Position numbers and translations under genes: made by a program
DNA from: a virus
Reading direction: 5' to 3' (one strand)
Virus record (IMG/VR): IMGVR_UViG_3300027833_000035
Coordinates: 8,896-72,895 of that record
DNA length: 64,000 nt
Shown here: positions 17,470-34,700 of the stretch, piece by piece
How the letters are laid out: every line of letters begins with the position of its first letter
How positions within the stretch are numbered: the stretch's first letter is position 1
Notes under the pieces: model-generated
Told to the model about the DNA's origin: nothing
The model's database searches: none
The model's input: only the letters and a program-made list of their open reading frames with translations

Positions 17470-17470
17470 A

Positions 17471-18034
17471 TTAACCACCACGGTACAGATATAAATCAAC
17501 TGGTACACATATTCTAAGACTAGAATAGTAGGGGTTAACATGGTGATATGTAAAGCTTGGGAATATCATATAATCCCCAGTTCTTGGTGTTATTGCTTTT
17601 TTATCAAATACATTATTCCACCAATCATCATAACCGCGATTAGCGTTTGTTCTTGGATCTGAGAAAACAATATCACCGCCAGAGTTTTGGTCCTCGGCTA
17701 ATATATAAAACACACCAGACAAATGAGCGCCCGAGTGATTATGTATAGTCATGTTATAATCTTTACCATGACCAGTAATCCACGCTTTCATTTCATGCGC
17801 TTTATAATCTTGGATATGTTTTCCGATACTTGCATAGAGATAGCGGTCAAAAGAGCTATACACCATGTCTTTAAATTTATTCATTTCAGGTGAATTATCT
17901 TTGAATATATTTCCACCGTTTACTTCACCTTCCATGTTATTTAAATCATAGTTAGCAAAGATGTATTCTATCAATCCATCAGTATCAAATTTACCTGAGC
18001 CAATCTTTGTTGGCCACATTTCATTAAATTCCAT
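17471..18034 (-). CDS. Putative 2OG-Fe(II) oxygenase (TIGR02466-like)
   Basis: AWIT...HNHSGAHLSGVFY...GGDIVFSDPR...PRTGDYMIFPSFTYHHVNP...R motifs. Confidence 0.8.
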   Translation of the reverse strand: MEFNEMWPTKIGSGKFDTDGLIEYIFANYDLNNMEGEVNGGNIFKDNSPEMNKFKDMVYSSFDRYLYASIGKHIQDYKAHEMKAWITGHGKDYNMTIHNHSGAHLSGVFYILAEDQNSGGDIVFSDPRTNANRGYDDWWNNVFDKKAITPRTGDYMIFPSFTYHHVNPYYSSLRICVPVDLYLYRGG

Positions 18035-18059
18035 AGCACCTCTCCATAATATATAAATC

Positions 18060-18067
18060 TATTTATA
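18060..18067 (-). promoter_or_regulatory. T4-type late promoter for the oxygenase
   Basis: Exact TATAAATA on the minus strand. Confidence 0.65.
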
Positions 18068-18079
18068 ACATATAAATGG

Positions 18080-18113
18080 TTGACAAATTTACTTCTATAT
18101 GTTATTATAAATA
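18080..18113 (+). promoter_or_regulatory. Overlapping sigma70-like and late promoters driving the plus-strand rSAM operon
   Basis: TTGACA (18080-85), 17-nt spacer, TATTAT (18103-08), overlapping TATAAATA (18106-13). Confidence 0.65.
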
Positions 18114-18139
18114 TATTAGTATATTATGATTGGAACACA

Positions 18140-18604
18140 ATGCTGTTTGAAAACTTTGAAAACTTCCTATTAACAGAAGAATGTTTTAATAACCACGACG
18201 TATCGCATATAGATAACGACGGCAACCAGCATTACCTAGAACATTCAGAATATATTTCTTACCTCGGTCAGGTTACAATTTTACTAGCTAACAGAGCTAC
18301 TATTAAAGTTGAACAAGCCGAGAAACTATTTGACTATAACGATAGGACAATACATTTATTTTATAATGATGTAGACGGTCCATCGTTTAAAGAACATACA
18401 GATCCTGTCGATGTTTTAATAGAATGTTTGGATGGTATAAAGGTTTTGGAAGTAGAAGGTGCTACAGTTATTCTGCAGCCAAACCAAAGCGTTTTTATAC
18501 CTGCAGGAACAAAGCATAGAGCACTTAATAACAAAAAGGCATTAATGATTTCACATGGCATTCGCGACACCGAAACACTTACTCGTATACGTAAAAACGA
18601 CTGA
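18140..18604 (+). CDS. Cupin/JmjC-like putative 2OG-dependent hydroxylase
   Basis: SFKEHTDPVDV...G.K...LQPNQSVFIPAGTKHRA gives an HxD...H triad. ATG 18140 preferred because the track's TTG start is the -35 box. Confidence 0.7.
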   Translation: MLFENFENFLLTEECFNNHDVSHIDNDGNQHYLEHSEYISYLGQVTILLANRATIKVEQAEKLFDYNDRTIHLFYNDVDGPSFKEHTDPVDVLIECLDGIKVLEVEGATVILQPNQSVFIPAGTKHRALNNKKALMISHGIRDTETLTRIRKND

Positions 18605-19583
18605 AACCTGCAATCTAAATTGCGCACACTGCTTTACGTCTGGTATCAATGGTAGAAAAATCTACTTTGATGCTGAGAAGACTGCTAACTGGTGCAATGA
18701 ATTATGCGATGGTAATAACGAAATACATTTTGAATACCACGGTGGCGAACCTATATTAGCTCCTATGGCAGACTTGATGAAGTTCTATAATATTACTAAA
18801 GAACATTGGGGTGACCGATGTACGCATGGTATTACAACTAACTTAGTTTATAAACTTACTGACGAAAGACTTGAGTTTTTAAAAATGTTAGACGGTGGTT
18901 CTGTTGGTACATCTTGGGATCCAAACATTCGTTTCTCTAATGAAAAGCAACGTAAACTATGGGAAGATAACGTCAAACGTTTGGTTGACGAAGGCTGCTT
19001 TGTTAAATGCTTTATATCAGTTTCAAAAGATGTGGTTAAAATGGATCCCATTGAAATTGCTGATTATATGCATTCGCTTGGTGTCGGCGCTATTAATTAT
19101 GAACGATTAACACATGACGGTAATGCAACAATCAACACTGATATTTTTCCACACAACTCTGAGCTTGATGCTTTTTGGATGGATATGCATGAAAAGACTG
19201 CTGACCATCCCGTTTATAATAGTTTCCTTAACACTGTATACGATAAGTTTAGTAAAGGTCAATTCTTTAATGGTACTTTCTGCAGAGACTGCGAGCAAAA
19301 GTTACATACCATCAACGCTGATGGAACTGTAGCCGGCTGCCCTAACACTGCGCCAACACAATGGTATGGTACGATTGATACTCCTGCAAAAGAGGTGCGC
19401 CAATCACCAAAACGTATGGAAGTTATATCATGTGAAATGCATGAAAGAGATCCACGCTGTTATGATTGCCCTGTGTTTATATATTGCCATTCTGATTGTC
19501 ATCAACTTCAATGGATGGGAGACGTCTGTCCAGCTCCTAAAACATTAATGATGAAACTTGCGAAGGATAAAGGATGGATTTAA
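18555..19583 (+). CDS. Radical SAM/SPASM protein (rSAM-1)
   Basis: CNLNCAHC, HGGEP, ITTN; C-terminal CRDC...GCPN...CYDCPVFIYCHSDC...C. Confidence 0.93.
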   Translation: MAFATPKHLLVYVKTTETCNLNCAHCFTSGINGRKIYFDAEKTANWCNELCDGNNEIHFEYHGGEPILAPMADLMKFYNITKEHWGDRCTHGITTNLVYKLTDERLEFLKMLDGGSVGTSWDPNIRFSNEKQRKLWEDNVKRLVDEGCFVKCFISVSKDVVKMDPIEIADYMHSLGVGAINYERLTHDGNATINTDIFPHNSELDAFWMDMHEKTADHPVYNSFLNTVYDKFSKGQFFNGTFCRDCEQKLHTINADGTVAGCPNTAPTQWYGTIDTPAKEVRQSPKRMEVISCEMHERDPRCYDCPVFIYCHSDCHQLQWMGDVCPAPKTLMMKLAKDKGWI

Positions 19584-20614
19584 TTATTAAGCCAACCGAG
19601 GCCTGTAACTTTAAATGTACCTTTTGTTCATCAACTGATATTGATGCTGACAAAGCTGGCTTACTTGATTTAGAATATGTTTATAAATTTCTAAAACGTT
19701 ATCCTGACACCAATACTATTATTGTAAATGGTGGTGATCCATTAATGGTTGATCCAAAATGGTATTGGGATTTGATTGCTCACCTTGACGAACATGATTA
19801 CCCTGCATCAATTAGTTTTACATCAAACCTCTGGCCATTCCTTATTAGACCAGAGAAATGGTTACCTTTATTTCAACACGAAAGATTTGGATGTACTACC
19901 TCATTTCAATATGGTGGTGGAAGATTAAAGGGTGATTACTCTGAGTTTACTGAAAAGGATTTTTGGCGAGTATCAGATGCTATGTTAAAACATACTGGCT
20001 CTCGACCAGATTTTATTTCTGTAATCGTTGATGAAAACTTTGATGATGCTATTAAAAATGTAGAATTAGCGAAAGAGATGGGAGTCGAGTGCAAACTTAA
20101 TTATGCAATGGCTTCTGGTGTTCAAGGCTCTACATTTAGGCTAAGTAAGATATATGAAACCTATATAAAGATATATGATATGGGTTTAGCTGAATACGAA
20201 TATAATACTAAACAAATGATGATAAGGTTAAATAAAAATAGTTGGACTACTTGTCCACAGAATAGACAATGCGATAGTGGTATACGCGCATTTAACCCAG
20301 GTGGTGATTACTATTCATGTGGTTCGTTTGCTGACGATTATGATTACCCTATTGATTTTGAGGAAGAAATGAATGGTGAAATGCAGACACCATTGCAGAA
20401 TGATCCAAATATACAGACAATGAAATCAGCTTGCTATACTTGTCCGATGTTTGATATATGTAATGGTTGTAAAAAGACTGTGCGTGATATGAAACGCGAA
20501 GGTCAAGCTGAGGATCATTGTTATCATATGAAAAAACTAGCACCAAGAATACTTGAAATAAACGGCATGGACCCAGGATTGGCAACACCTTATGTTAATG
20601 AATCTATCAATTAA
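19574..20614 (+). CDS. Radical SAM/SPASM protein (rSAM-2)
   Basis: CNFKCTFC, NGGDP, FTSN; CP...C...GDYYSC...CYTCPMFDICNGC...C. Confidence 0.93.
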   Translation: MDLIIKPTEACNFKCTFCSSTDIDADKAGLLDLEYVYKFLKRYPDTNTIIVNGGDPLMVDPKWYWDLIAHLDEHDYPASISFTSNLWPFLIRPEKWLPLFQHERFGCTTSFQYGGGRLKGDYSEFTEKDFWRVSDAMLKHTGSRPDFISVIVDENFDDAIKNVELAKEMGVECKLNYAMASGVQGSTFRLSKIYETYIKIYDMGLAEYEYNTKQMMIRLNKNSWTTCPQNRQCDSGIRAFNPGGDYYSCGSFADDYDYPIDFEEEMNGEMQTPLQNDPNIQTMKSACYTCPMFDICNGCKKTVRDMKREGQAEDHCYHMKKLAPRILEINGMDPGLATPYVNESIN

Positions 20615-21506
20615 TCCAACATACTATTGTAACTTCGCTTGCGATTTCTGTTACTTAACAACAGAGCAGCTAAACGATAGACATAAAATTACTCCTTTAT
20701 GGTTAGAGAATAGCCTACAACAAATTACTGACGAGGTTGGTCATGTTGATTTATATGGTGGAGAAATTGGTTTACTATCACCGGAGTATTATTATTCATT
20801 AAAGAAAGTAATACGTAATCATTACAAAGGCCCAATTAATATTAATACTAACTTGTCGGCATTCCCTGACTTTTTTAGAGATGAGGATGTAACGTTATCA
20901 GTATCATATGATTTCCATGCCAGAGAAAAAGAGCAGCATGTTTTAAATAATATGATGAATGCCAACAAGGATTTATCTGTATTGATATTAGCCTCGCCAA
21001 AAGTGTTAGAGATGGATGTAGAGTTTATGATTTTTACACTTAATATGATTTCTAATGTTAAATCAGTTGAGATTAAACCATATTCAGTTAATCAGGCAAA
21101 CCAACATAATGTAACTCATAAAGACTTTGAGGATTTCGTTATTAGGTTTGATGAAGCAAACACTGTAAAGAATTTTAATTTTCAAAACATTGATAACATA
21201 TACGATAGCATAGAAGGCAAGTATGACGCATTTAGTAATGACCATGTTTATATAACACCGCGTGGGAAATTTGGCGTCTTGGAATTCGATAAATACGACA
21301 GAGAGTACTTTAAAGAATACGACACTTACCATGAATATCAAACATGGGCACGTGAAGAACCTGAAAACAATTTGAGCGATATATGTAACGTATGTTCTTA
21401 TTATGGGAAATGCTTAACAGAACATTATCGGTATGTACACGACTTAACCAATAGTTGTAATGGATATAAAGGGTTATTAGAATATTATGAAAGAATGGAA
21501 AGCTAG
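20598..21506 (+). CDS. Radical SAM protein with a C-terminal Cys cluster (rSAM-3)
   Basis: CNFACDFC, YGGE, INTN; CNVCSYYGKC...C. Start MNLSINP assumed. Confidence 0.9.
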   Translation: MNLSINPTYYCNFACDFCYLTTEQLNDRHKITPLWLENSLQQITDEVGHVDLYGGEIGLLSPEYYYSLKKVIRNHYKGPININTNLSAFPDFFRDEDVTLSVSYDFHAREKEQHVLNNMMNANKDLSVLILASPKVLEMDVEFMIFTLNMISNVKSVEIKPYSVNQANQHNVTHKDFEDFVIRFDEANTVKNFNFQNIDNIYDSIEGKYDAFSNDHVYITPRGKFGVLEFDKYDREYFKEYDTYHEYQTWAREEPENNLSDICNVCSYYGKCLTEHYRYVHDLTNSCNGYKGLLEYYERMES

Positions 21507-21885
21507 ACAAAGCGCGTATCATTTAACAGCATCTTTATTTAAAGACGATTTAACTGATGTAGAAATTAATTGGCAGCCAGATAATATCGTTGAGGATGCA
21601 CTAACGCATTTCAGACAATATGTTGACGAATGGGTCTACCCTGCAAAATCGTATGTAGTTGCTATATGTTATGCCCATTGGTTAAATAGAGATTTTAAAG
21701 AACCATTCTTTGATGCTCTTAATGACGAAGCCTTATTGTTTAATAATGATCCACACTTTGTTCCATATTGGGCAGACAAAGAAACATATGACGATATACT
21801 ATTTAAATTAGACTTTAACGAAAAACTTGGTATGGTACCTGACATATACGAATATTATAAAGAGGAAATGTTATTTGGACTTTGA
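21487..21885 (+). CDS. Hypothetical protein within the rSAM operon
   Basis: 132-aa acidic/aromatic ORF overlapping both neighbours. Confidence 0.75.
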   Translation: MKEWKARQSAYHLTASLFKDDLTDVEINWQPDNIVEDALTHFRQYVDEWVYPAKSYVVAICYAHWLNRDFKEPFFDALNDEALLFNNDPHFVPYWADKETYDDILFKLDFNEKLGMVPDIYEYYKEEMLFGL

Positions 21886-22951
21886 AATAACAAAAACACT
21901 ATTAGAATCTAAACGTCCGGATATAGCCGAGATTGAGTTGACTTTATTTGAAAACTGTCATCTTAATTGTTCGTTCTGTCATCACGATAAAAAATCTACC
22001 GTAGGTTTGAGTAGGGAAGAGATATTCTCTAAATTGGATTTAGTTGAACAACATGTCATTAAGATGAAAGGCAGAGTTGATATAATCCAAATCAATATGG
22101 TTGGCGGTGAGTTATTCCAAGATAGAATATCAGAATGGGCTTACCCTGTTTACTTTGATTTCCTTGTAGCAATCAAAAAGGTATTTGACGAACATAAGCA
22201 AAAGATTAAAGTTGTGTGGGTAACATCGTTTCAATTTAGCAAACGTGAAAGAGTACAGAAACTACTCGACGACCTAAACGCTGAAGCAATCCCTTCATAT
22301 ATTATATGTTCATATGACTTTGACGGGCGACCAACAAAAGGTCCATACGCTAAAAATATAGAATACTTTGCTGACTATATCGTATCAATTAATATGGTTG
22401 CTACTACTTTGTCAATCAAAAAGTTTATGGCAGACGATGATGAGTATTTCCATTACTTATATGAAAAGTTTGACGAATTCTATTTTGATGATTATATTCC
22501 AGATCGTGGATATGATTATATGATACCATCAGATAGTGAGTACCTCGAGTTTTTAAAATTCGTATACCATAACTATCCAGACATTAATCCTATTAAGGAT
22601 CTCATATATAACGAGAGTAATCACATGCATTGCTTGGCTCTTAATAAGGTTACGATATTCCCAGATAACTCTACATCAAATTGCCGCTGGGATAGATACG
22701 ATCAACGAGATTTTAATACAGAATACAAACCTAAAGATAACGCCGGAATGATGCAAGCATATATGGATGAAAACGGTTGTCTATCTTGTCAGTGGTATAA
22801 TAAGTGTGGATTTAGATGCTATACCCAATGGGATTGGAAAAACAGAGAACGCGATTTACCTGACTGCATAATGAGAATGTGGTTTAATTATATGGACAAA
22901 ACAGGTCAAAATTTGATAACAGGATTTAATTATGATAAAGAAAAAACTTAA
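21875..22951 (+). CDS. Radical SAM protein with SPASM-like C-terminus (rSAM-4)
   Basis: CHLNCSFC, VGGE; C...C...CLSCQWYNKCGFRC...C. TTG start at 21875 after a GAGG SD (track start 21827). Confidence 0.9.
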   Translation: MDFEITKTLLESKRPDIAEIELTLFENCHLNCSFCHHDKKSTVGLSREEIFSKLDLVEQHVIKMKGRVDIIQINMVGGELFQDRISEWAYPVYFDFLVAIKKVFDEHKQKIKVVWVTSFQFSKRERVQKLLDDLNAEAIPSYIICSYDFDGRPTKGPYAKNIEYFADYIVSINMVATTLSIKKFMADDDEYFHYLYEKFDEFYFDDYIPDRGYDYMIPSDSEYLEFLKFVYHNYPDINPIKDLIYNESNHMHCLALNKVTIFPDNSTSNCRWDRYDQRDFNTEYKPKDNAGMMQAYMDENGCLSCQWYNKCGFRCYTQWDWKNRERDLPDCIMRMWFNYMDKTGQNLITGFNYDKEKT

Positions 22952-23651
22952 ACTTGATTTTTATACATCACACAAAACGCTTATAGAATTACAACCAATT
23001 CAATCTAGAACTAAACCACCATCATGGTGGAAGTCTATTAAGAATTCGTATAGCCAATTTAGGTCTAGGGCTGGTACTAAAGTTCCAACTCCAACGGTTA
23101 AAACTTGTCCTGGGATTGTTGATTATATTCGCAAACCTATTGTTCTTAAACTATGGTCGGATGGTATTTTTAAAGTAAAACCAAACGGTGATGTTGAATG
23201 TATTGAACCCTTACAAGGATCTGGCATACTTGATGGATCTCAACATGAACGTAGACAATTTGGTGATACATTATATCCAAACTGTACTGTATTTAAACTA
23301 CATGGTCCATGGTCAGTTAAATCAAGTGAACGTAAAGAGTTTATGATTACTGAATGTCATTACACTGAAGATTTGCGTAAGCATGGTATTTTAATCTCAC
23401 CTGGGATTACAAACTTTTATGACCAACATACTTTAAACTGTTTTTTAGTATTTCCAATTAAAGACGAAGAATATACTGTAACGCTTAAATATGGTACACC
23501 TATTATGTCAATATATCCAATGCACGAAATGGAACTTGATATTAAAATGCATGAGGTAGCTACACGTCAGGAATGGCAAGAAATACAAAACGTATTCCCA
23601 TCAACCTTTATCGGTCGTTATCACTCCCGGAAACACACACGCGGTAAGTGA
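22932..23651 (+). CDS. Hypothetical phage protein
   Basis: PSWWK...TVKTCPGI.DY...KLHGPW...ISPGI...GTPI pattern; last gene of the plus-strand operon. Confidence 0.7.
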   Translation: MIKKKLKLDFYTSHKTLIELQPIQSRTKPPSWWKSIKNSYSQFRSRAGTKVPTPTVKTCPGIVDYIRKPIVLKLWSDGIFKVKPNGDVECIEPLQGSGILDGSQHERRQFGDTLYPNCTVFKLHGPWSVKSSERKEFMITECHYTEDLRKHGILISPGITNFYDQHTLNCFLVFPIKDEEYTVTLKYGTPIMSIYPMHEMELDIKMHEVATRQEWQEIQNVFPSTFIGRYHSRKHTRGK

Positions 23652-24629
23652 ATGGTGTTCCATATAACTTAGTACACCTTTATCAATACATGTCATTAAA
23701 TTTTTACAATTGGCACAGTTATCAGATTTACTTGAATAAGCCAACTGTGACATGAACTTATTGTCTTTTACCTGAGTCCACGACTCAATATCATTTTCAT
23801 CCTTGACTACAAAATTATCTGTACCAATTAAAGCTATATCATATACGAATGGTGTCCAAAAGAAACGTTCGTTACAATAAGTATAATTTAATTCTAAAGA
23901 ACCACCTTGCGCTTGGTCAATAAATGTTTTAGGCATAAGATCGTCAGCAAAGTCATAGTTCTTCCATTTTTCAATAAGATGTTTTTGAACTTTAGATTTT
24001 GGCGCTCGGAAAAACGATGGATTTAAAGTAAGAATAGAATCAAACTGTTCTTCAACGAGTTTTGACATTTCGAGTACCTTATGGTTCTCAACATCATCAT
24101 TACCCATATTATATACCATATAATAATTTAAATCATCTGTCAACCCGTTTAATATATCTAATTTATATTTAAGTACATTCCAATTAACAGGTGGCTGCAA
24201 CGCTATATTACAATCATACATAAATCCATCAGCTTTTGGAATACTATTTAATAACTCAATAACATTATAATCAATCTTTTCCAATGTTGTAACGAATTGA
24301 ATAGTAGTTACTTTACTTAAACACTCTCGGAATGTTTCATCTTTTAATAACTCTGTAATATTATTATTACCAAATAAATCAGTTGGACCAATATTAATGG
24401 TTGACACGCGGTACCCATTGGTATTAAATAAATCAATGGCATTATTTAATCTATCAAACGATCCCATATTTGAACCGAGTTTATTAACAAAACAACCTTT
24501 GCATTTAAACTCGCAGCCAGATAATACCTCACAATTAAACTGTACTTTGATTTCATGTCCTTCATTAAAGGATAAATCAAAATCCTTATCGGCTTGAGCA
24601 GCACGTTTATTATTAGTAACTATTCCCAT
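23601..24629 (-). CDS. Divergent radical SAM protein, GPTD paralogue group (rSAM-9)
   Basis: EVLSGCEFKCKGCF, IGPTDLF; CANCKNLMTC...C. Start MGIVT assumed. Confidence 0.82.
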   Translation of the reverse strand: MGIVTNNKRAAQADKDFDLSFNEGHEIKVQFNCEVLSGCEFKCKGCFVNKLGSNMGSFDRLNNAIDLFNTNGYRVSTINIGPTDLFGNNNITELLKDETFRECLSKVTTIQFVTTLEKIDYNVIELLNSIPKADGFMYDCNIALQPPVNWNVLKYKLDILNGLTDDLNYYMVYNMGNDDVENHKVLEMSKLVEEQFDSILTLNPSFFRAPKSKVQKHLIEKWKNYDFADDLMPKTFIDQAQGGSLELNYTYCNERFFWTPFVYDIALIGTDNFVVKDENDIESWTQVKDNKFMSQLAYSSKSDNCANCKNLMTCIDKGVLSYMEHHSLTACVFPGVITTDKG

Positions 24630-25767
24630 GGTAAACCTCATCATCATATAAACCAATTACATCTTTATTTAAAATACATTCTTTTCTTCCATCAAATACG
24701 GTATCCATAATCATTGGAACCATTCTATTCACGCATATATTTAAATACTTACAATCGCCGCATTCTTTGCTTCCACTATTTTCAATCTGTTTAACAACGA
24801 TTTCGTCTTTCTTTTTTAGAATATAATCAGTTATATCCGCGTCAGGCAGCATCAACCAACCATTATCAACTTTAAAATCATCTGTATGGATCTGAGCATT
24901 CTCATATATGAATGGAGACAAATACATATCACCGTGGTATATACTGACTACCGAATAATGAAATGCTTTATGTGATACATCACCTTGTAAGAAATGGAAT
25001 TTGTTTTTAAACTTATGTGGATCTGCAGCCAACCGAGTTAGCATATCGTTCCATTCAAATAGTTTATTTCCATGTTTTGCACTATGATTAAAAGAACGTA
25101 CTACTGATGGCAATACTTCAATAACAGTTTCATACCTACTCCTAACAAACTCAATGGCAGGGAATAGTATATCCTCTACACCTTGTACGATATTAGTAGC
25201 CATACTTATTTCAAAGTTTAAAGAACTATTCTTAAACGTTTCAACTCTTTCGTCGAGTGCATCTAAGTATACTTGATCGTTCATTAATCTATTTAAATCC
25301 AAAGCGATTTGTACATCCCATGCTTCAACGACCTTACCCAGCGGTGAGTTTTCAATAGATTTTATCTTACCCTCAATATCCTTTTCAGATAATGATCCAA
25401 GTATAGAACAGTTATGTTGGATATTTCTATTATCCTCAGGCATCATTAATATAGCATCAGCAAGCCTTTGATTATTAATAATCTCTTCTAAATTTTGAGC
25501 ACCATAAAAGTCAGTAGGTCCGATTACAATATCGTCCAATACAACATCAGTTCTATCTTTTAATTCATACGCCAAGGAATGAAACGTTGCGATTGAGTTT
25601 GGGTTCCAATTACCTTTACGTTTAACAAAACAACCCGGACACATATATGAACAGCCTTCAAGTATTTCAAGGTTGACTTGTATTTTATATTCTTTCATAT
25701 TGTCGATTGAAGTAAATTCCTCACCACGTCCACCGTCTACAATATTTTTCCAATCATTATTTAACAT
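24613..25767 (-). CDS. Divergent radical SAM protein, GPTD paralogue group (rSAM-8)
   Basis: EILEGCSYMCPGCF, IGPTDFY, YLSPFIYE; CGDCKYLNIC...C. Confidence 0.85.
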   Translation of the reverse strand: MLNNDWKNIVDGGRGEEFTSIDNMKEYKIQVNLEILEGCSYMCPGCFVKRKGNWNPNSIATFHSLAYELKDRTDVVLDDIVIGPTDFYGAQNLEEIINNQRLADAILMMPEDNRNIQHNCSILGSLSEKDIEGKIKSIENSPLGKVVEAWDVQIALDLNRLMNDQVYLDALDERVETFKNSSLNFEISMATNIVQGVEDILFPAIEFVRSRYETVIEVLPSVVRSFNHSAKHGNKLFEWNDMLTRLAADPHKFKNKFHFLQGDVSHKAFHYSVVSIYHGDMYLSPFIYENAQIHTDDFKVDNGWLMLPDADITDYILKKKDEIVVKQIENSGSKECGDCKYLNICVNRMVPMIMDTVFDGRKECILNKDVIGLYDDEVYHGNSY

Positions 25768-26914
25768 ATGATATATCCTTTAAACGTTTTAGTTCTGGGT
25801 CGTCGTCATCAGTAACCAAAAACTTTTTACGATAACCATTCTTATCGTTTTCAACTGAATAGCCATCCCATTCATACATTGTTTGAGCAGGACCATTATA
25901 GTTGTTTATATTATTTAGCATATTCTCTTTAGGAGCAATGCAGCGATCTACTCCGAGGTAATCCCTTAACATTATTATTTTTCTATTATAACAACTAAAG
26001 AACAACGGACAATCCTCACACTCAGTTCCTTTTGCTCTTTCAATTTGATGTTCAACCATTGGAACAACGTCATTAAAAGATTTTACTTTAAACATATCAT
26101 CGTATATAGCCATGTTCTCATACATGAATGGACTTAAATACCATTCACCACGTTTATAGTTTAACACAGTGTAATTAATACCTGCATGAGAATGGTCTAC
26201 CATAATATTGTTTAGCTTTGACTCTTGGTGCCATGTGCTAAAGTATTCATTAAACTCATCGAGTGTCTTTAAGATTATGTTTGCTTTATGAGAACGAGAT
26301 ACTGACGGAATAAAATCCAATATAGTATCAAAACGTTTTACTGCTTGATCGTGTAATGCTTCATAATCTAATCCATAATCTTTAATATTAACAACAAACG
26401 TATAAGTAACCTCATGCATAATATGTTTATCTATATAAGCTAACATATCTGATATATGTTTCGTGTATTCATCAGTAAAGAATTTATGTGGATTTGTAGC
26501 GATACCAATTTCTATTTCAGTATCGAGGTTAATGTTATCCATAAGAAAATTACAGAACTTTTTAATATCACCATCAATAAGAGTTGACACAAAAGCTAGG
26601 ATAGGAGAGTTTTCATTAATAATATCTACGAGTTCTGGCATTACTTCATAGAAATTTTCTGATGCCAAAAAGTCTGTTGGACCGATTAATATTTCATCAA
26701 CAAGTATTCCTTGGTCAGTAATCGAACGTATAAACTCTTTTGCCATAAATATTTGGCTTTTATCGCTAGCGTTCCCCCGTCTATGTACAAAGCACCCAGG
26801 GCACTTGTGGTGACAACCGTCTAGTATATCCATTTGAATTTTGACGGCACTGACGGGCTTAGTTTGGGTCTCTGTGGTCATCTCATAATAGAGATTATTT
26901 TTAATCAGAGGCAT
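25757..26914 (-). CDS. Divergent radical SAM protein, GPTD paralogue group (rSAM-7)
   Basis: DILDGCHHKCPGCF, IGPTDFL, YLSPFMYE; CEDCPLFFSC...C. Confidence 0.85.
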   Translation of the reverse strand: MPLIKNNLYYEMTTETQTKPVSAVKIQMDILDGCHHKCPGCFVHRRGNASDKSQIFMAKEFIRSITDQGILVDEILIGPTDFLASENFYEVMPELVDIINENSPILAFVSTLIDGDIKKFCNFLMDNINLDTEIEIGIATNPHKFFTDEYTKHISDMLAYIDKHIMHEVTYTFVVNIKDYGLDYEALHDQAVKRFDTILDFIPSVSRSHKANIILKTLDEFNEYFSTWHQESKLNNIMVDHSHAGINYTVLNYKRGEWYLSPFMYENMAIYDDMFKVKSFNDVVPMVEHQIERAKGTECEDCPLFFSCYNRKIIMLRDYLGVDRCIAPKENMLNNINNYNGPAQTMYEWDGYSVENDKNGYRKKFLVTDDDDPELKRLKDISYVK

Positions 26915-27923
26915 ACATATATTCCTTCAATGCGACGCAGTTATCTAATCCTCGCGACTCCATATATAAATGTATATTACGTTCAGCACAGCTCATCATA
27001 TATTTGCAGCCATTACAATCATCAACCTGTTGAGCATATTCAATATTATCATATAAAGTATTTGCATCCATCGTTGTTTCAAAATTTGGAGTTCTTTGAA
27101 TAATAACATCATATAAGAATGGATTTAAATATAGTTTATTATTATAAAAGCTATAGTTTTGGCAGCCATATCCATTAAACTTTGCATCAAAGAATGTATA
27201 AAGATTAAGCCATTTTTTATCAATGTTTTGCTCAACCATTTCGCGTCTAAAGTTTGCTAGGTGCTGTTCCACCTTACCGCGTGCATTCCTATCTGTTAGA
27301 AACGACGGCGTAATTATAACTGGTGCATTATAATCATCAAATATTCGTTGACATAAATCATTATAGCCGATACGTTTAAATACATCTTTATGGTAATTAA
27401 CTCTAAATTGAACTGAACCTAATTCAAACATTTTGAGTTTACGGTTCCAATCGTCTAGTTCTCCATCAAGGTACTTATCTATATCTAAAACGATTTTAAA
27501 ATCAATATCAGGTACTCTGTGAATGCCTTCGTATAAACTCCAAATCTTATCGAGCTTATCCTTTATTTCAGCATATGGTTGAAGTAACGTTGATGTAAAT
27601 CCAACTGCCGATATTTCATAAAGCTTTTTCATATATGGATGGTTCATAATCTCGTAGAAGTTCTCTGCGTCAAAAATGTCAGTAGGACCAACCGTTATTT
27701 CGTCAGGATAATAAGAACCATTAATTAAAAGATTATAAAGCGTTTCTAAATTATCAGCCTTAGTAAGGTTCTTACGTGGAATAAAACAACCTGGGCACGA
27801 CTGAGCGCAGCCATGTAATATGTCTAAGTTTATTTCAGTACGTAAAAAGTCTGTATTAATAGGGCTTTTATTTTCATCATACGTATAGTAACCTGCGTAT
27901 GTTTTATTCAGTTTCACTGTCAT
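26901..27923 (-). CDS. Divergent radical SAM protein, GPTD paralogue group (rSAM-6)
   Basis: DILHGCAQSCPGCF, VGPTDIF, YLNPFLYD; CNGCKYMMSC...C. Start MTVKL assumed. Confidence 0.85.
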   Translation of the reverse strand: MTVKLNKTYAGYYTYDENKSPINTDFLRTEINLDILHGCAQSCPGCFIPRKNLTKADNLETLYNLLINGSYYPDEITVGPTDIFDAENFYEIMNHPYMKKLYEISAVGFTSTLLQPYAEIKDKLDKIWSLYEGIHRVPDIDFKIVLDIDKYLDGELDDWNRKLKMFELGSVQFRVNYHKDVFKRIGYNDLCQRIFDDYNAPVIITPSFLTDRNARGKVEQHLANFRREMVEQNIDKKWLNLYTFFDAKFNGYGCQNYSFYNNKLYLNPFLYDVIIQRTPNFETTMDANTLYDNIEYAQQVDDCNGCKYMMSCAERNIHLYMESRGLDNCVALKEYMYASD

Positions 27924-28740
27924 TAGTATTGGCCTCGGCTTCCGATTGAATATCAGCTTTAATGTCAGCCTCGATTTCCTCTTCAGTTTTTGGTTTTGGA
28001 ATATCAACACTAATAATAAATCCAGGAGGCATCATTGATAAAATGTTATTTGTAATATTAGCTTGTGTCAATACATAAAACAAATCTTTACCAAAGTATG
28101 CTGGCTTATCGTTATACATTTGTTTATTATATTGCATTTTAAATCCAAGCATAGAACAAACTAATAGGAAACCATCCCAACCGTCAGTAAGGAGACGCGC
28201 AACGTTTGGACCACACACTGTTGGTTTATCAACTACTGTAATTTGGTCAACTGCGTCTTTTACTTCAATTTCAATTGCTTTGTTTTCATCTGATAAATTT
28301 TCGTGGAATTTACAGATTACGAATGGAATAAGTTCAGCCATGTTATTACAAACTTCATCAATCAAATCAATATGTTTATCAACAAAATCGTGTAACTGAT
28401 CTTTACTAAATATGTCAAGTAATTGCTGTTCTAAACCATTAAACTCATATCTATATCTAGCTTTAATAGCCATCACAACAAACCGTGATAGGAAAGGGCT
28501 ATCAATAATAAAGTCTGATTTAATATATTCCAACAACAAGTCTTCATCGACTTGAGCAAAAGTTGTTTTAAAGTTAGTGTTTGCTAAATAAATTAGAATA
28601 TGTTTAGCTGACAGCTTTTCTTTAGATGCCAAATAATCTACCCATAAAACAAAATCTTCATCTTCTTCTTTTACCTTATAGATCTCAACTAAATTCTGAG
28701 GTGCTAATGGTAAAGTATATATATTTTTTTCTTCACTCAT
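27904..28740 (-). CDS. Hypothetical protein within the rSAM operon
   Basis: 278-aa helical-looking ORF with an acidic tail, overlapping the downstream rSAM gene. Confidence 0.75.
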   Translation of the reverse strand: MSEEKNIYTLPLAPQNLVEIYKVKEEDEDFVLWVDYLASKEKLSAKHILIYLANTNFKTTFAQVDEDLLLEYIKSDFIIDSPFLSRFVVMAIKARYRYEFNGLEQQLLDIFSKDQLHDFVDKHIDLIDEVCNNMAELIPFVICKFHENLSDENKAIEIEVKDAVDQITVVDKPTVCGPNVARLLTDGWDGFLLVCSMLGFKMQYNKQMYNDKPAYFGKDLFYVLTQANITNNILSMMPPGFIISVDIPKPKTEEEIEADIKADIQSEAEANTNDSETE

Positions 28741-28755
28741 AATAAAATCACTTTC

Positions 28756-29859
28756 TTATATCAATGGGTATTTATGAATTAAATATGGTATTCTGTTTTG
28801 GCGTTTTGAAAAGAACTGAACATCTGTATTGATTAACGCTAAGTCTTCTCTAATATTATCTGTGTTAAAGTTTCTTTCTAAAACCTTTTTAACGATAGGG
28901 AACACATTATTGATTTCAGTATATAGATCCATGTATTCCCAACCATCCGCTGTAGTATCAGCTTTGTTTTGGTGAACCGCAATAAAATCAGCATCGTCTT
29001 TAACTTTATTCCATAACTCTTCTAATAAGTAAAACGCAAGTGTGTAGTTAGATTTATTAGCAGCATTTACATATACATCTTTAAAGAATTGTTTTTTGTC
29101 TGTAGCCCAATCATTCGCGTCAGTTGCATTGGCATTCATATAATCAATGACTGACATAATGTATGCTGAATAGTGACGACGTGAAGTAAAGTGTTCCATA
29201 ACATCTCTTGCCATAACTGGTGAATGGATAGTAAACTTCTCAACGATTAATTCTGAAATCGGTGTACATGGATAAAAATCATTTAAGAAGAACAATAAGT
29301 CATAACTAAAGTTTTTACCATTTTGATATGTAATTACCCAAGGTGTTTCGCCTTCAGCATTTAATAAAGTATTCGTGTGGTTTCTAACATCGTTATAAAC
29401 TGTTGAGTCACTCATTAATGATAATACTAAATCTTGGTTAATCACTGCTTCCATATAATGGGCAGTCATAGAATTAATTGTTGTTGCATCGGCATCAGGG
29501 TAGAAACCAGAGGCTGTTAATAATCCAGCGGTATATTTAGCAAATACTTTAATCATATCCTCTTCGTCTGTAAACATAAGGATACGTTTATCACTGTTTT
29601 GAATATAGTCAGCATTAGCAACGTCTTCCCATTGCTCAAAATCCAATAGTGAAGCAGCATTAGAACGTGCGTTATTTGCCAACAATTCGTATTCAGCAGG
29701 CTGAAGGAATGCATCTTCAATATCAGGATGAACGATTGTAATTCTTCTTGGCTCAGCAGTATGATAAAAAGAATTTAATTCACCAATTACTGTTTCAACG
29801 TTTTGCGTATTTGTAATATACTTTTTATTATTTAAGTAATATAAACTCTGTCCAATCAT
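28756..29859 (-). CDS. Hypothetical protein within the rSAM operon
   Basis: About 367 aa; start MIGQSL overlaps the upstream stop (ATGA). No motif recognised. Confidence 0.75.
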   Translation of the reverse strand: MIGQSLYYLNNKKYITNTQNVETVIGELNSFYHTAEPRRITIVHPDIEDAFLQPAEYELLANNARSNAASLLDFEQWEDVANADYIQNSDKRILMFTDEEDMIKVFAKYTAGLLTASGFYPDADATTINSMTAHYMEAVINQDLVLSLMSDSTVYNDVRNHTNTLLNAEGETPWVITYQNGKNFSYDLLFFLNDFYPCTPISELIVEKFTIHSPVMARDVMEHFTSRRHYSAYIMSVIDYMNANATDANDWATDKKQFFKDVYVNAANKSNYTLAFYLLEELWNKVKDDADFIAVHQNKADTTADGWEYMDLYTEINNVFPIVKKVLERNFNTDNIREDLALINTDVQFFSKRQNRIPYLIHKYPLI

Positions 29860-31031
29860 AATTTTGCTCCTAATTTTTCTATTGCGTCGTCGTTCCAAGT
29901 GAAATCGTATGGATTATATTCAGCAAGAACATCTTTGTTCAATACACAGCCATTAACATTTAATGATTCTTGGGCTTCAAAGATCAGTCTACTTGCGCAG
30001 GCAACTGCGAATTTACAGTCAGCACAGTCTTTTACTTTACTCGACTTATTTATACCTTTTGTTACTAATTCATTTTTACGATCTAATATTTCTTCGAATG
30101 TTAAACCAGTAACATCTAAATTTTTATTACCTAAGAAAAACGCTTGTTCATGTAGCATTACATTTAGGTGTGTGGTTGGACCATTTTCTCCTGGAACAAT
30201 TGTAAGTCCAACAAAGTTAATTGAGTTACAATAAAGATTAGCCATTGACATAACAGTTTCTTGTGCGTTATCTTTATCAATAACTCTACCAAGGAAATCG
30301 TTCCATCCAAACAAATTCTTTCTTTGAACCAATTGTGAGTTTGCCCTAGAAAAAGCAGGGTTCATTTCTACGATTGTTTCATATTCATTTACAGATTTTT
30401 GGATAATCTTATTGTATGTTTCTTTATCAATCTTTTTGCCAACAACGTTAGAAGCCTGAAGTGTCCACGACCAATCCATTTGTTTTGGCGTATTGTTTTT
30501 AAAGAACTCTACCTTTTCCATAACGTTATCAAAGTATTCATCATCATTTAACATCTGCTCTACTCTGCCGATTGGCATAATAAATTCGATAATCATTTCG
30601 CGGCGATACTTATCTTCATCGTCAAGTACAGCAAAGATTTCTTTTACTTTATCCATAGTTGCTAAATCAAATTTAGCAGGTGCCGCGATACGAGCTCCGG
30701 TATGTTCTCTCATAATCTCTTGGACTACTGAGTTATTTAATACTGACTCTGTATTCTTGGCAGTGAAAAAGTCTGTTGGTCCAATAACGAATTCTCTTAG
30801 GTTAAGGCCAGTTCTTTTTACACCATCGGCAAGTTCTTTTGCTCTATCAATAATTTGTTGGTTCATAGCAGGGTCAATGTTTTTATCAACGAAACAACCT
30901 AGGCAGCCGTGATTACATCCAGCCAAAACTTCCATTTGAATTAAAACATCAAACTTAGTAGCATCCGAAGGTGTTAGACTTTCTGGTCCTGAGTACCTCA
31001 TTTGCTTACAATATGATTTTTGCATTGACAT
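29856..31031 (-). CDS. Divergent radical SAM protein, GPTD paralogue group (rSAM-5), adjacent to the putative substrates
   Basis: EVLAGCNHGCLGCF, IGPTDFF; CADCKFAVAC...C. Start MSMQKSY lies 1 nt after the stop of 31033-31413. Confidence 0.85.
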   Translation of the reverse strand: MSMQKSYCKQMRYSGPESLTPSDATKFDVLIQMEVLAGCNHGCLGCFVDKNIDPAMNQQIIDRAKELADGVKRTGLNLREFVIGPTDFFTAKNTESVLNNSVVQEIMREHTGARIAAPAKFDLATMDKVKEIFAVLDDEDKYRREMIIEFIMPIGRVEQMLNDDEYFDNVMEKVEFFKNNTPKQMDWSWTLQASNVVGKKIDKETYNKIIQKSVNEYETIVEMNPAFSRANSQLVQRKNLFGWNDFLGRVIDKDNAQETVMSMANLYCNSINFVGLTIVPGENGPTTHLNVMLHEQAFFLGNKNLDVTGLTFEEILDRKNELVTKGINKSSKVKDCADCKFAVACASRLIFEAQESLNVNGCVLNKDVLAEYNPYDFTWNDDAIEKLGAKL

Positions 31032-31032
31032 G

Positions 31033-31413
31033 TTATCTTCTTCCTCTCGAACTGTGACAACTACTATGGCAGCTGGCATGACAGTAATAAGCATTGATTG
31101 TTCGGTTACTCATTCTGCCTTCTATTAAGTCGACTGTTCTTCTAGTTAAATCTTCTAATGTATCAACAATATCTTGTGCGTAAATTATCTGACCTGAATT
31201 AATGCCACCATCTACATAGTTATTATATACATAATAGTTTGCATTCACAAATTCAAATCTATGATAATGCCATTGGCCTGTGGTATAACTTGTAACACCT
31301 GTACCATTAACATATGCGTTAACATAAATTCCAACATTTCTATCAAACGTTCTTAATTGTTGTCCACCATACGTCATTACATACGAATTAACGTCACCTC
31401 TATCCATAGTCAT
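31033..31413 (-). CDS. Putative rSAM substrate/precursor B (126 aa, C-terminal YYCHASCHSSCHSSRGRR)
   Basis: Paralogue of the upstream gene; TAATG overlap with it; Tyr-rich with a CHxS repeat tail. Confidence 0.8.
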   Translation of the reverse strand: MTMDRGDVNSYVMTYGGQQLRTFDRNVGIYVNAYVNGTGVTSYTTGQWHYHRFEFVNANYYVYNNYVDGGINSGQIIYAQDIVDTLEDLTRRTVDLIEGRMSNRTINAYYCHASCHSSCHSSRGRR

Positions 31414-31793
31414 TAGCGGCGACCTCGCGAGCTATGACACGATGAGTGACAACTTGAATGGCAGTAATATGCGTTAATAGTTCTATTTGATAATCTTCCT
31501 TCAACCAAATCAACAGTCCTCCGTACGACGTTACGAATTGAATCAATAACATTACCTGAACGAATAATTCCGCCGGTGTATATACCACTAGACATATACC
31601 CATTATAATAAGAATATGAAGCGTTTACAAACTCGAACCGTGTATAATGCCATTGGCCTGTGGTATAACTGTATCGTCCACCGTTTGCATATACATAAGC
31701 ATTAATATAAAACCCAACGGTCTTATCAAAGGTTCGTAATTGTCGACCACATTGAGTCTGTAAACTACTATTTAACTGTGCATAACTTGGCAT
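31413..31793 (-). CDS. Putative rSAM substrate/precursor A (126 aa, C-terminal YYCHSSCHSSCHSSRGRR)
   Basis: Starts 1 nt after the tail-fibre stop codon; three tandem CHSS units. Confidence 0.8.
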   Translation of the reverse strand: MPSYAQLNSSLQTQCGRQLRTFDKTVGFYINAYVYANGGRYSYTTGQWHYTRFEFVNASYSYYNGYMSSGIYTGGIIRSGNVIDSIRNVVRRTVDLVEGRLSNRTINAYYCHSSCHSSCHSSRGRR

Positions 31794-31794
31794 A

Positions 31795-34700
31795 CTATAC
31801 TTTAACCTCTACTTCACCATTTTCACTATCACTTATCGCGATACCAATTATTTCATAGCTATTTATACCCGGAGTACCATAGTCAACTCCCTTAGCTTTA
31901 CCATCACCAGCAGGGATTACCCATTGGCCTTTCTTAACATCTTCACTTACTAAACATGGGATCCGACCTTTAAGAGCAATGAACGGATTCATTAATGCTT
32001 TTGTAGAAGTAGATCCAGGCTCAATTCCCATGTCGTTCATTTGAACAGCAGGGTTTGTTGATATGACACCAGCAAGAGGCATGCCCGGTTCCCATTTAGT
32101 AACTTCTGAGTCACCTTCAATGTTAATACCCATAACAGTAGCATTTTCATATACAGCATCTGCAGAATATCTCTCTGCAAGGTCAGCCCATCTTGCTGAC
32201 GTAGCTGTACCAACATATAAACCACCATTATCAATATACGATCTATCAGAACCATTTTGTCTAAACTGACAAATACGGTTTGAGTTACCACCAGAAGTAA
32301 TATAGAAACGGTTTGAGTGGTATTCAATTTTACCAACATCGTTTCCTGGGTTACCTGTCCAAGATTCGTTACCAGATTCTTCAAATCTAATACATGGTGA
32401 ATAACCATCTTGGTGTCGTGTTCTTAACTGCCATTGACCCGCAGCATTCAAATCGCCTGACCATGTTCTGTCACCATACATCCAACGACACATTGTACCG
32501 TTATATGTTGCTCTAAGTTGTAGAGACATAGACGAAGAGTTATTGTTACCAGTGATAGCATAATACTGACCTTGGTAAGAATAAGCGTGTACACCGGTTT
32601 GCTGGTTGTAAATACCCTCACGTTGACCGTCGTTACGGAACCAATTACGAGCATATATTTCATTGGCACGAACATAATCATTGAAGTTAGAACCTGATGA
32701 TGGATTACAATAATAACCAGTATTATCTCTGTCGTAGAAGATTGGCGCACGGAATGAGGATGATGCATAAGAGTTGCCATCACACATTGCTTGGAAGTAC
32801 CAACCTGAAATACTATCAGTAGCATTACCGTGCATCCCAACATAGAAACCTGTTGACCCTGTAGTGTTATTATTATTTGAGTCAAGGTTAAAGAATATGT
32901 CGTGGTATGAGTTAAATCGTAAATCGTCTGATACACCTCCACCACTGTCTCTGGAAGATATAGAGTGATAAGTACTGTCGTTACCATAGAATGTAATAAA
33001 GTCACCACGATCTCTTGCGTTTAACTGATCCCATTCAATCGTACTCATTTGCGAAGTAGATGCTGGGTTTGTATAACGATTTGTATCGTTTGAGTCGTAG
33101 AAGATTGGAGCTCTTAATGAACTACCAGCTTGTAATGAGTTATTTACATAAACGTCGTTAGCACCAAGTGGATCAGAACCGTTATTGATTGACATGACCT
33201 GAGTATTCATTGTATAGTCATCGTAGAAACGCATACCATTATAACTAGCATTTGCACCCATCTTAATACCAGTGTGGAAAGCAATTCTTAGATCCGGGTA
33301 TGGGTAAGTCCAACCACCACCTTCACGATAGATAGCGTAAGCAGTTGATTCATTACTTCCAAAGTACAAACCAAATTGGTCATTTTGTGAAACATCATCT
33401 TTGTGTACAAATCTATTTGCTCTAATGTCGCCAGCAAAATTGTTATCACCGGCTGGATTTAAAAAGTATGCAGAGTTGTTACGATCGTAATAAGTATTGG
33501 CATATATATCACCATATACTTCAGTTGTACCACTTCGAGTTCTTAGTGCCCAGCTACCAGATTGATTAAGGAAACCAATATCATTTGAGTTGTTTGCATA
33601 TACATAGCCTCGAATAGTACTTCCATTATCATCTCTAAATCGTATACCATTAGCAGAGCCACCGCCTGCAACGTTCCAATAGTCATCGTTGTCTGAATAG
33701 AAATGCTGACCTGTTGCAGTGTTATATAAACCACGACCATTTGTATCGTTACGGAACCAACCATCGTTATAAACTTCTGAACGAATATCAAGTGTATGCA
33801 TTACTGATGTTGAAGCAAAGTCACCGTAATAACCTGTACTGTCACGGTCATAATATCGTCCAGAGTAAGTTCCACCTGTTACGAATATGTTACCATCACC
33901 ACGAACAAGAAGATTTGTTGTACCTGATAAGCCGCCATCTCTAAACGCAATGTCTTCACCGCCTGATGTAGCAATAATTAAGTGAGCATCATTAGTATCA
34001 GTAGCTTGGATATAACCACGAACATTGCCAGCATTTGTAATAAACTGAGCTTCACCACCGTCAGCAAACTGAATAACATCTACTTTTGATGTACTTGATG
34101 GATCGACGTAGAAAGATGTATCGTCTGAGTCAACTAATCTACTTGCATAGAAGTATGAACTTGTACCGCCGCCTGGGTTTGCGTTATAGATAGCAATATC
34201 AGAATAAGAAGAATAGGCTGTACCTGAGTTCCATGACTGTTGCCATAGACGCATACCACGACCAGACTTTTTAAACATCAATAAGTTATCTGAACCGCCA
34301 GAAGAGTCTGTGTAAGATCTTAAGTGTAAGTAATCGGCATATGGTGCAGTGTTATTATTGTTCCAAGATGTGAAACCAAACGTTAATCGACCTGCAGTAT
34401 CTTCGTTAGGTTCAATAATACGGTTATCTTTGCGTAATAATGATCCTGCATAACCATTAACATTACCTTGGATTACGTTATCAACTTGTAATGTTAATAG
34501 TCTCGAAGTACCATTACCGTCAATTTTGTATGCAGTATTGTCACTGTCATACCAAATTGGTGAACGTAACTGATTAACACCTAGGAAGAAACCATCTTTA
34601 GTAGACGCTTGTTCTTCACCATTATAATAAAGTTCAACATCGCCATTTTGACGGAAGATTTGTGCCCATTCGTCGTTAGTATCATTAAAGATACCAGCAA

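Follow-up and report, generated by a model that had tools for sequence, protein, structure and literature searches.

Five minus-strand genes in a 64,000-nucleotide stretch of viral DNA (the window: positions 8,896 to 72,895 of the IMG/VR record IMGVR_UViG_3300027833_000035) encode proteins related to radical S-adenosylmethionine (SAM) enzymes, referred to here as rSAM paralogs 1 to 5. Our analysis supports the view that they form a distinct rSAM subfamily that no characterised Pfam, NCBIfam or PDB-sequence family takes in. With modest confidence, we favour on balance the reading that these members of an unnamed rSAM family are active, site-specific accessory maturases of a Cys-His-x-Ser (CHxS) tail, which is found at the end of two small proteins encoded directly upstream of paralog 5. 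A previous sequence-only reading of the DNA had placed a five-member family in the interval 23601-31031; the five genes indeed lie there, together with two open reading frames (ORFs) that do not belong to the family. The source record measures 72.9 kb, with a CheckV completeness of ~33%. Its window proteins include a T4-type terminase, a tail sheath, gp15-like and neck proteins and very large fibre-type proteins, a gene content on which we assign the source to an uncultured T4-like myovirus.

Motifs, SAM site and predicted fold of the five paralogs

All five minus-strand ORFs carry the cluster loop (E/D)(I/V)LxGCxxxCxGCF, the motif (I/V)GPTD(F/L/I), and a C-terminal CxxCx5C followed by one more cysteine, just as the sequence-only reading had described them. 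Its further remark that four share PFxY(E/D) was borne out, with GPTTHLN taking this place in paralog 5 (29856-31031), and the four plus-strand rSAM enzymes of the window are near-canonical as it had stated (CxxxCx[H/F]C with GGE or GGD). The paralogs measure 351-412 amino acids (aa); paralogs 1, 2, 4 and 5 are 23-28% identical to paralog 3, and 20 columns are invariant across the five. Searching the genome record with paralog 3 revealed exactly these five mutual relatives (E 4.6e-27 to 1.2e-15 for the other four), indicating at the sequence level that their likeness is homology and not chance. Four of the five genes overlap head to tail. The start of paralog 5 at 31031, 2 bases past the stop of the upstream CHxS_b gene, reads M-S-M-Q, and M-[STA]-M-Q is kept in 47 orthologs among those listed. 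For paralog 1, a Met codon a short way downstream of its TTG is the probable true start, and for paralog 4 an ATG at about 27923 is likelier than the GTG. The two ORFs that break up the array gave no family, Pfam or PHROG match and a single sub-threshold NCBIfam match; in loci L038-L045, paralog 5 adjoins paralog 4 directly, without them.

A profile of the five paralogs, run against 1.84 billion representative proteins, matched 216 at E≤1e-3, of which 84 reach E≤1e-30, and no functional name was found among the sampled family clusters. The sequence-only reading had taken the motifs to be lineage-specific. This 216-protein family keeps GPTD and CxxxCxGC throughout, also in jumbo phages and in contigs titled Bdellovibrionota, so that this phage is not alone in having the unusual motifs; by their distribution they are a signature of the family and not a sign of decay. 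Curated models recognised the paralogs poorly. Pfam gave sub-threshold Radical_SAM and Fer4_12 matches in three paralogs and none in the other two, a few close homologs bear a precomputed PF04055 label, and NCBIfam gave weak NrdG matches only (12-20.6 bits, versus a cut-off of 126.1 for TIGR02491). When PDB sequences were searched by profile with the five paralogs, only two chance matches resulted (E 0.29 and 1). All five match phrog_31457 (E 7e-8 to 2.7e-5), showing that the family had already been clustered among phage proteins in PHROGs v4; this cluster, from a collection without curated cut-offs, has no name or function, and in two paralogs the match is confined to residues 254-369 and 96-196, respectively. 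The earlier proposal of a distinct subfamily is thus upheld with respect to characterised Pfam, NCBIfam and PDB-sequence families.

Conservation was evaluated in an alignment of 137 sequences, comprising the five paralogs and 132 full-length profile matches (numbering of paralog 3). The cluster-loop cysteines C34, C38 and C41 are kept in 137/137 sequences, D81 of GPTD in 136/137, N87 in 133/137, and P79 and T80 in 125/137. Each of the C-terminal cysteines C299, C302, C308 and C325 is kept in 136/137, while no other C-terminal cysteine reaches 60% conservation in these sequences; G40 and R207 are kept in at least 90%. The active site of such a barrel is expected at the C-terminal ends of its strands. 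The conserved residues cluster at the C-terminal ends of beta1, beta2, beta3 and beta5 and just after beta6, with E/D29 on beta1, T111 on beta3, N176 on beta5 and R207 just past beta6.

In rSAM enzymes, the GGE motif sits at the end of strand beta2 and its carboxylate binds the amino group of SAM. In the model of paralog 3, GPTD falls at the end of beta2 (residues 71-78), where its acidic residue would occupy the GGE position. A pertinent comparison is T4 NrdG, the activating rSAM enzyme of the anaerobic reductase. This 156-aa protein (NC_000866; annotated as the anaerobic ribonucleotide reductase small subunit) reads CLHKCEGC and TGGDP, and the earlier view that a glycine before the third cysteine is abnormal is therefore not supported. 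Alignment of the family profile with T4 NrdG by hhalign (probability 72.8%, E 3.2e-5) placed P-T-D on G-G-D and N87 on the Asn that follows. Since GPTD and the NrdG GGD share an aligned Asp, the acidic residue of the motif is retained in this alignment; GGE, previously considered lost, appears to have kept its acidic residue while Gly-Gly became Pro-Thr.

The C-terminal cysteines were compared with the seven-cysteine SPASM motif, of which the paralogs hold four conserved cysteines only. With single plus-strand rSAM enzymes, hhalign of the family profile gave weak alignments, at a probability of 22.5% for the cluster loop and of 3% for the C-terminal cysteine motif. In the latter alignment, used for the cysteine pattern only, CxxCx5C...C lines up with the SPASM part of rSAM_A and the next xxxC is absent. 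We presume, from the anSME cluster ligands, that this four-cysteine pattern corresponds to the second auxiliary (AuxII) site. The pattern thus suggests a half-SPASM domain in which one auxiliary [4Fe-4S] cluster is fully ligated. As proposed here for the paralogs, the twitch enzymes SkfB, BtrN, MoaA and SpeY have a shortened C-terminal domain with a single auxiliary cluster; in their case it is the first (AuxI) site that is kept, whereas the paralogs would keep the second, judging by the motif pattern.

An AlphaFold2 model of paralog 3 (predicted local distance difference test score, pLDDT, 91.5; predicted template-modelling score 0.91) displays six beta-alpha units, a beta hairpin bearing PFxYE, and a helical, cysteine-bearing C-terminal domain. 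The paralogs are thus predicted with high confidence to consist of an rSAM partial TIM barrel and a SPASM-like C-terminal domain; lack of this barrel would have spoken against the earlier assignment, and the barrel is predicted. Foldseek returned 49 PDB matches for the model at E≤0.001. Among the matches listed, most are rSAM enzymes (CteB, viperin, anSME, EpeE, SuiB, ChlB); rank 1 is 6e1j, a methylthioalkylmalate synthase, and four others listed are also non-rSAM proteins (three LeuA-type synthases and NahE). In a structural comparison by VIA-align, run without Foldseek, the best match was anSMEcpe (4k36_A; Z 15.2, 302 aligned residues, root-mean-square deviation 4.5, model residues 22-348), followed by ChlB (9gm3_A; 14.4), TigE (13.2), CteB (5wgg_A; 13.1), SuiB (11.5), SkfB (11.2) and PqqE (11.1). 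Lower scores were obtained for MoaA (10.0), BtrN (7.6), SpeY (7.5) and pyruvate formate-lyase (PFL) activase (7.5). By model comparison, the nearest structures are SPASM or twitch enzymes that modify proteins or peptides.

anSMEcpe (PDB 4K36-4K39), ChlB, TigE, CteB, SuiB and PqqE share with the paralogs the barrel and a C-terminal cysteine-rich Fe-S domain, and anSMEcpe and the SPASM maturases act on proteins or peptides. Sequence identity to these enzymes is only 9-12%, however, and the paralogs differ from SPASM maturases in having Gly for the aromatic residue, GPTD for GGE, four C-terminal cysteines instead of seven, and no RRE domain. Features of SPASM, twitch and RRE domains are treated in the available part of PMC8326336.

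The motif comparisons also raise the possibility of NrdG-like activases of a glycyl-radical enzyme, or of modifiers of a nucleotide, DNA or a small molecule. For four of the five paralogs, the best curated matches are NrdG models, spanning the cluster loop through beta2 (model positions 22-93 only; E 3.3e-4 to 0.053), and phage rSAM enzymes take part in DNA hypermodification according to the available portions of PMC5889632 and PMC8989533. Yet the NrdG scores lie far below the cut-off, and the 351-412-aa paralogs with their cysteine-rich C-terminal domain contrast with NrdG proteins of ~155 aa that have no C-terminal Fe-S domain and activate a glycyl-radical enzyme. No such enzyme was seen in the cassette or among the window ORFs scanned, PFL activase scores Z 7.5 against 15.2 for anSMEcpe, and a conserved protein tail is at the centre of the cassette to which the family belongs. 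We consider this explanation improbable.

Selection on the copies and their history

The sequence-only reading had also envisaged Fe-S subunits of a non-catalytic or hetero-oligomeric kind; having lost SAM cleavage, these might serve as scaffolds, electron carriers or substrate chaperones. The missing canonical aromatic residue and Gly-Gly of GGE, the weak Radical_SAM model scores, and the head-to-tail overlap of four genes, which is compatible with stoichiometric co-production, would fit such a role. All five genes are under purifying selection, however, with median pairwise ratios of nonsynonymous to synonymous substitution rates (dN/dS, NG86) of 0.062-0.080 for each (orthologs at 70-93% identity). 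Together with the conserved residues at the C-terminal strand ends of the barrel, these values argue against decayed or purely structural proteins. The cluster cysteines (137/137) and the GGE-equivalent Asp (136/137) are conserved, the activating enzyme T4 NrdG has the same CxxxCxGC with GGD, and a hetero-oligomer of paralogs is impossible in single-copy lineages such as Ralstonia phage RSL2. We therefore judge loss of catalysis to be very unlikely.

To trace the copies, 249 family ORFs were clustered at 85% identity into the 93 rows of a tree, leaving out the own-genome loci L001-L005. This is a quick tree with long branches, in which the deep order is unsure. Each paralog falls into its own clade of 11-19 marine T4-like rows, with support of 99-100 by the Shimodaira-Hasegawa-like approximate likelihood ratio test (SH-aLRT) and stems of 1.1-2.6 changes per site: paralog 1, 19 rows (SH-aLRT 99); paralog 2, 15 rows (99); paralog 3, 16 rows (100); paralog 4, 15 rows (100); paralog 5, 11 rows (100). 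The sequences of RSL2, of L066 (a 250-kb viral contig) and of Bdellovibrionota contigs form a separate clade (SH-aLRT 95), and a second, very divergent Bdellovibrionota group stands apart. Five copies are present in 32 of the 60 viral loci L007-L066 and six in one; most others are cut by contig ends, while a few well-flanked loci hold two (L036, L039, L061, L064) or three copies (L048, L050).

By this tree, the expansion is old and, in the sample examined, specific to a marine T4-like phage group. The earlier notion of a lineage-specific expansion therefore stands for the five-copy array, which in the sample is confined to marine T4-like phages, and is not supported for the motifs. The five copies are old, non-redundant duplicates that probably act at different positions, steps or substrates; a separate ortholog clade for each copy agrees with the site-specific enzymes proposed previously, or with step-specific ones. 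Across 66 of the 93 tree rows, only nine columns are fixed within every clade yet differ among at least three clades, a number too small to point to any specificity determinant.

The CHxS tail and its cassette

The plus-strand genes next to the array belong to a core cassette of four SPASM-type rSAM enzymes (rSAM_A to rSAM_D), a cupin, a 132-aa protein and a 2-oxoglutarate (2OG) oxygenase. Relatives of rSAM_A-D and of the 132-aa protein occur in RSL2 and L066 at 29-56% identity, and at 27-63% in Bdellovibrionota-titled and phage-like contigs of genome collections (L068-L089). Relatives of the cupin and 2OG oxygenase were found in RSL2, L066 and some other loci. In Pseudomonas phage pPa_SNUABM_DT01, the cassette as annotated in the record has one cupin-like protein together with six radical SAM proteins and two 2OG oxygenases. 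The Bdellovibrionota contigs were found among genome contigs with rSAM_B as the single query, an approach that does not distinguish chromosomal from phage-derived origin. L068, L069 and L074, filed under Marinovum, Methanobacteriota and Rickettsiales metagenome-assembled genomes, carry the phage cassette with fibre-gene homologs and look like phage contigs binned with cellular genomes. Searching PDB with rSAM_A by phmmer gave no match.

The GPTD family was present in 76 of 91 loci examined (four of the 91 are repeat contigs). All 76 hold an ORF with the CHxS tail (64 loci; pattern (CHxS)3R[GSA]RR), homologs of the core enzymes rSAM_A-D (67 loci), or both. Core rSAM genes are present in each of the 12 family loci that lack a tail ORF, several of which start within the paralog array or shortly ahead of it. 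Eight loci titled Bdellovibrionota (L071, L073, L082-L084, L086-L088) have a divergent family member directly behind rSAM_A, and a CHxS gene is listed right after this member in 7/8, with none listed for L082.

The two CHxS proteins of the window are encoded directly upstream of paralog 5, behind the gene for a 2795-aa fibre protein. They end in CH[AS]SCHSSCHSSRGRR, conforming to the pattern (CHxS)3R[GS]RR. This tail is invariant in 38/38 aligned homologs, in which identity of the protein body drops to 29%. Tails of 3 to about 11 CHxS units terminate RSL2 ORF068, pPa_SNUABM_DT01 PA10_00065 and proteins of L066 and of Bdellovibrionota contigs; most have three units, and L066 has about eleven. 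Among the loci examined, tail-bearing proteins are encoded at 9128-9691 of L006, 2918-3625 of L066 and 6068-6604 of L097. The AlphaFold2 model of CHxS_b reached a pLDDT of 80.5, with the tail below 60; its best PDB match scored Z 5.6, and BFVD gave no match at E≤0.001. Searching a phage collection with CHxS_a by tblastn gave only two chance-level matches, both to one Lactobacillus phage, in a search whose low-complexity filter probably masks the tail. For a predicted complex in which paralog 5 was combined with the C-terminal 52 residues of CHxS_b, SAM and two 4Fe-4S clusters, the score was 0.02 against a mark of 0.32, which weighs neither way.

Based on these data, the following mechanism may be proposed. 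In the (beta/alpha)6 partial TIM barrel, the CxxxCxGC loop would hold the SAM-cleaving [4Fe-4S] cluster, and the four C-terminal cysteines (CxxCx5C...C) should bind one fully ligated auxiliary [4Fe-4S] cluster. After reductive cleavage of SAM at the former, the 5'-deoxyadenosyl radical would abstract a hydrogen from a residue of a protein substrate, with the auxiliary cluster as a putative carrier of the electron. The substrate would most likely be the (Cys-His-x-Ser)x3-Arg-Gly-Arg-Arg tail of the two small upstream proteins, and the five copies may divide among them positions, steps or the two substrates. Candidate chemistries are a thioether or other cross-link, an oxidation to an aldehyde as in anSME, or an epimerisation. 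Tail-bearing loci without the family suggest that it is an optional tailoring layer on the core cassette of four SPASM-type rSAM enzymes, 132-aa protein, cupin and 2OG oxygenases.

Several observations weigh against this reading of the paralogs as active tail maturases. Seven CHxS loci lack the family in the fetched flanks, five of them spanning at least 18 kb (L068, L069, L074, L075, L081); the tail can mature without the family, whose own target could then differ. Family copy number takes the values 0, 1, 2, 3, 5 and 6 and does not follow how many CHxS proteins or repeats are present. Most marine loci are close relatives fetched with one motif, so that the loci do not count as independent samples. 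At the protein level, PF04055 scored 17.1 and 14.9 bits in two paralogs, against a gathering cut-off of 29.5, and did not match the other three. The SPASM and anSME models PF13186, TIGR04085 and TIGR03942 had no match in the five at E≤1, while such models do match rSAM_A and rSAM_B of the plus strand. About 25 residues precede strand beta1, and no recognisable leader-binding (RRE) domain is present in the paralogs. Usable dN/dS pairs number 4/26, 11/26, 15/28, 6/6 and 8/21 for paralogs 1 to 5, with dS near saturation.

The occurrence of the cassette without the family in at least five well-flanked loci, the copy numbers, which do not follow the CHxS repeat number, and the position of the array among fibre genes (encoding 2795-aa, 1291-aa and 1566-aa proteins) would also fit active cassette rSAM enzymes with another target, such as another virion protein (for instance the neighbouring giant fibre proteins), an intermediate of the core enzymes elsewhere on the CHxS protein, or one of the two non-family ORFs that break up the array. 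We regard this alternative as possible though doubtful: only the CHxS tail and the core enzymes travel with the family across four or five unrelated lineages, the neighbours being otherwise different in RSL2 and pPa_SNUABM_DT01, and family genes adjoin CHxS genes in the window as well as in the Bdellovibrionota loci.

Maturation of the CHxS tail may be specified further. Tentatively, and with clearly less assurance than for tail maturation as such, we propose a fusion of an NrdG-like SAM site with a half-SPASM domain in which the second auxiliary cluster is the only one left. Each of the five copies would make its own kind of radical modification in the tail of a virion protein associated with the fibre, and the result might be a cross-linked or metal-binding product of an undescribed kind, made by up to nine rSAM enzymes and shared with predatory bacteria. 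rSAM maturases of peptides are already well known. If our reading is true, CxxxCxGC, GPTD and a four-cysteine half-SPASM domain would define a new, easily recognised rSAM subfamily, and the SAM site would tolerate replacement of its textbook aromatic residue and Gly-Gly without loss of constraint. A probable virion protein would be the target of an undescribed post-translational chemistry, itself conserved across marine T4-like phages, Ralstonia/Pseudomonas jumbo phages and Bdellovibrionota, and the five-copy array would offer a natural experiment on how paralogs divide sites or steps.

Related systems and genome setting

The nearest described analogue is the HXS antiphage system, a bacterial defence with a periplasmic effector. 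According to the accessible text of PMC13128918, HxsA, a folded protein with His-x-Ser repeats, is matured by the rSAM enzymes HxsB and HxsC together with HxsD, and a +8 Da change was mapped to its SHRSS motif. Both systems comprise several rSAM enzymes, and the phage tail holds three His-x-Ser units; as far as that text describes HXS, the phage proteins differ in that their repeats are Cys-His-x-Ser, lie at the extreme C-terminus and end in RGRR. The HxsB and HxsC models (TIGR03978, TIGR03977) had no match in the five paralogs at E≤1. rSAM_A matches HxsB (E 1.6e-8), and rSAM_B and rSAM_C match HxsC (2.6e-5 and 0.0029), all far below the cut-off.

In the literature searched, no paper was found that describes the family or the cassette, nor a phage devoting nine rSAM genes to one small protein tail, nor a subfamily with this motif set. 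The consulted part of Nishimura et al. mentions a marine T4-like genome with 12 radical-SAM genes (PMC5332604). In the FLC6 paper (PMC8066314), the consulted part names cupin, Fe-S oxidoreductase, radical-SAM and 2OG oxygenase genes that RSF1 shares, and assigns them no function.

Both CHxS tails (31118-31126 region) end in Ser-Arg-Gly-Arg-Arg, and in some Bdellovibrionota loci the end is Ser-Arg-Ser-Arg-Arg. The formylglycine motif of sulfatases is (C/S)-x-(P/A)-x-R. The tail end loosely resembles it, and anSME is the best structural match of the paralogs, a sequence likeness that we treat as a lead only. The octamer TATAAATA, a T4-type late-promoter word, occurs at 31860-31867 (-), 67 nucleotides upstream of the CHxS_a start, and also before the fibre gene and the 2OG oxygenase gene. 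It is not enriched overall (15 found versus 9.9 expected; 15 reached in 9/100 shuffles) and provides a hint only.

The window has a G+C content of 32-43%, and sequences related to it come largely from seawater data. Contigs from four seawater RNA-seq runs match 29-30 of the 30 bins of 17400-31800 at 90-99% likeness, with DNA carry-over possible; as contigs cannot show transcripts, this coverage was not counted as expression evidence. A megablast search of a phage collection with the whole interval gave no match, and viral contigs searched with P0017 gave no relative.

Table 1. Features of the window discussed in the text (positions in the window).
Feature	Position	Strand	Remarks
266-aa protein	13613-14413	-	cytidylyltransferase-like, with mannose-6-phosphate isomerase/cupin C-terminal domain; in phage structural region
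Tandem DUF7936 proteins	16685-17020 and 17025-17414	-	PF25590 E 8.7e-13 and 3.4e-9; adjoin 2OG oxygenase gene
2OG-Fe(II) oxygenase	17471..18034	-	PF13759 E 2.7e-13; homologs in RSL2, L066 and pPa_SNUABM_DT01 cassettes
Cupin	18080-18604	+	Pfam/NCBIfam
rSAM_A	18555-19583	+	Pfam/NCBIfam
rSAM_B	19574-20614	+	Pfam/NCBIfam
rSAM_C	20592-21506	+	Pfam/NCBIfam
132-aa protein	21487-21885	+	
rSAM_D	21827-22951	+	Pfam/NCBIfam
239-aa protein	22932-23651	+	phrog_7084 E 3.4e-18 (PHROG without known function); ends plus-strand operon, converges on paralog 1
Paralog 1	23601..24656	-	351 aa from TTG; CEFKCKGC, IGPTDL, PFVYD, CANCKNLMTC...C; family hidden Markov model (HMM) E 1.3e-74
Paralog 2	24613..25767	-	384 aa; CSYMCPGC, IGPTDF, PFIYE, CGDCKYLNIC...C; family HMM E 1.2e-74
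Paralog 3	25757..26914	-	385 aa; CHHKCPGC, IGPTDF, PFMYE, CEDCPLFFSC...C; modelled copy
Paralog 4	26901..28010	-	369 aa from GTG; CAQSCPGC, VGPTDI, PFLYD, CNGCKYMMSC...C; family HMM E 5e-70
278-aa ORF	27904-28740	-	unrelated to family
380-aa ORF	28756-29898	-	unrelated to family
Paralog 5	29856..31031	-	391 aa (ORF 29856-31094); CNHGCLGC, IGPTDF, CADCKFAVAC...C; without PFxY(E/D)
CHxS_b	31033..31413	-	126 aa; ends CHASCHSSCHSSRGRR; candidate substrate
CHxS_a	31413..31793	-	126 aa; ends CHSSCHSSCHSSRGRR; candidate substrate
1566-aa protein	46682-51382	-	collagen repeats with Peptidase_S74 chaperone domain
4014-aa single ORF	51804-63848	-	preceded by TATAAATA at 63885-63892 (-)

Besides the 2795-aa protein, the fibre genes around the array encode a 1291-aa protein, whose N-terminal domain is of the T7 tail-fibre type, and the 1566-aa collagen/Peptidase_S74 protein; the 4014-aa protein also counts among the very large fibre-type proteins of the window. 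Close to the cassette, several Bdellovibrionota-titled loci (L071-L089) carry ORFs of ~350 aa that resemble the 1566-aa protein (28-38% identity).

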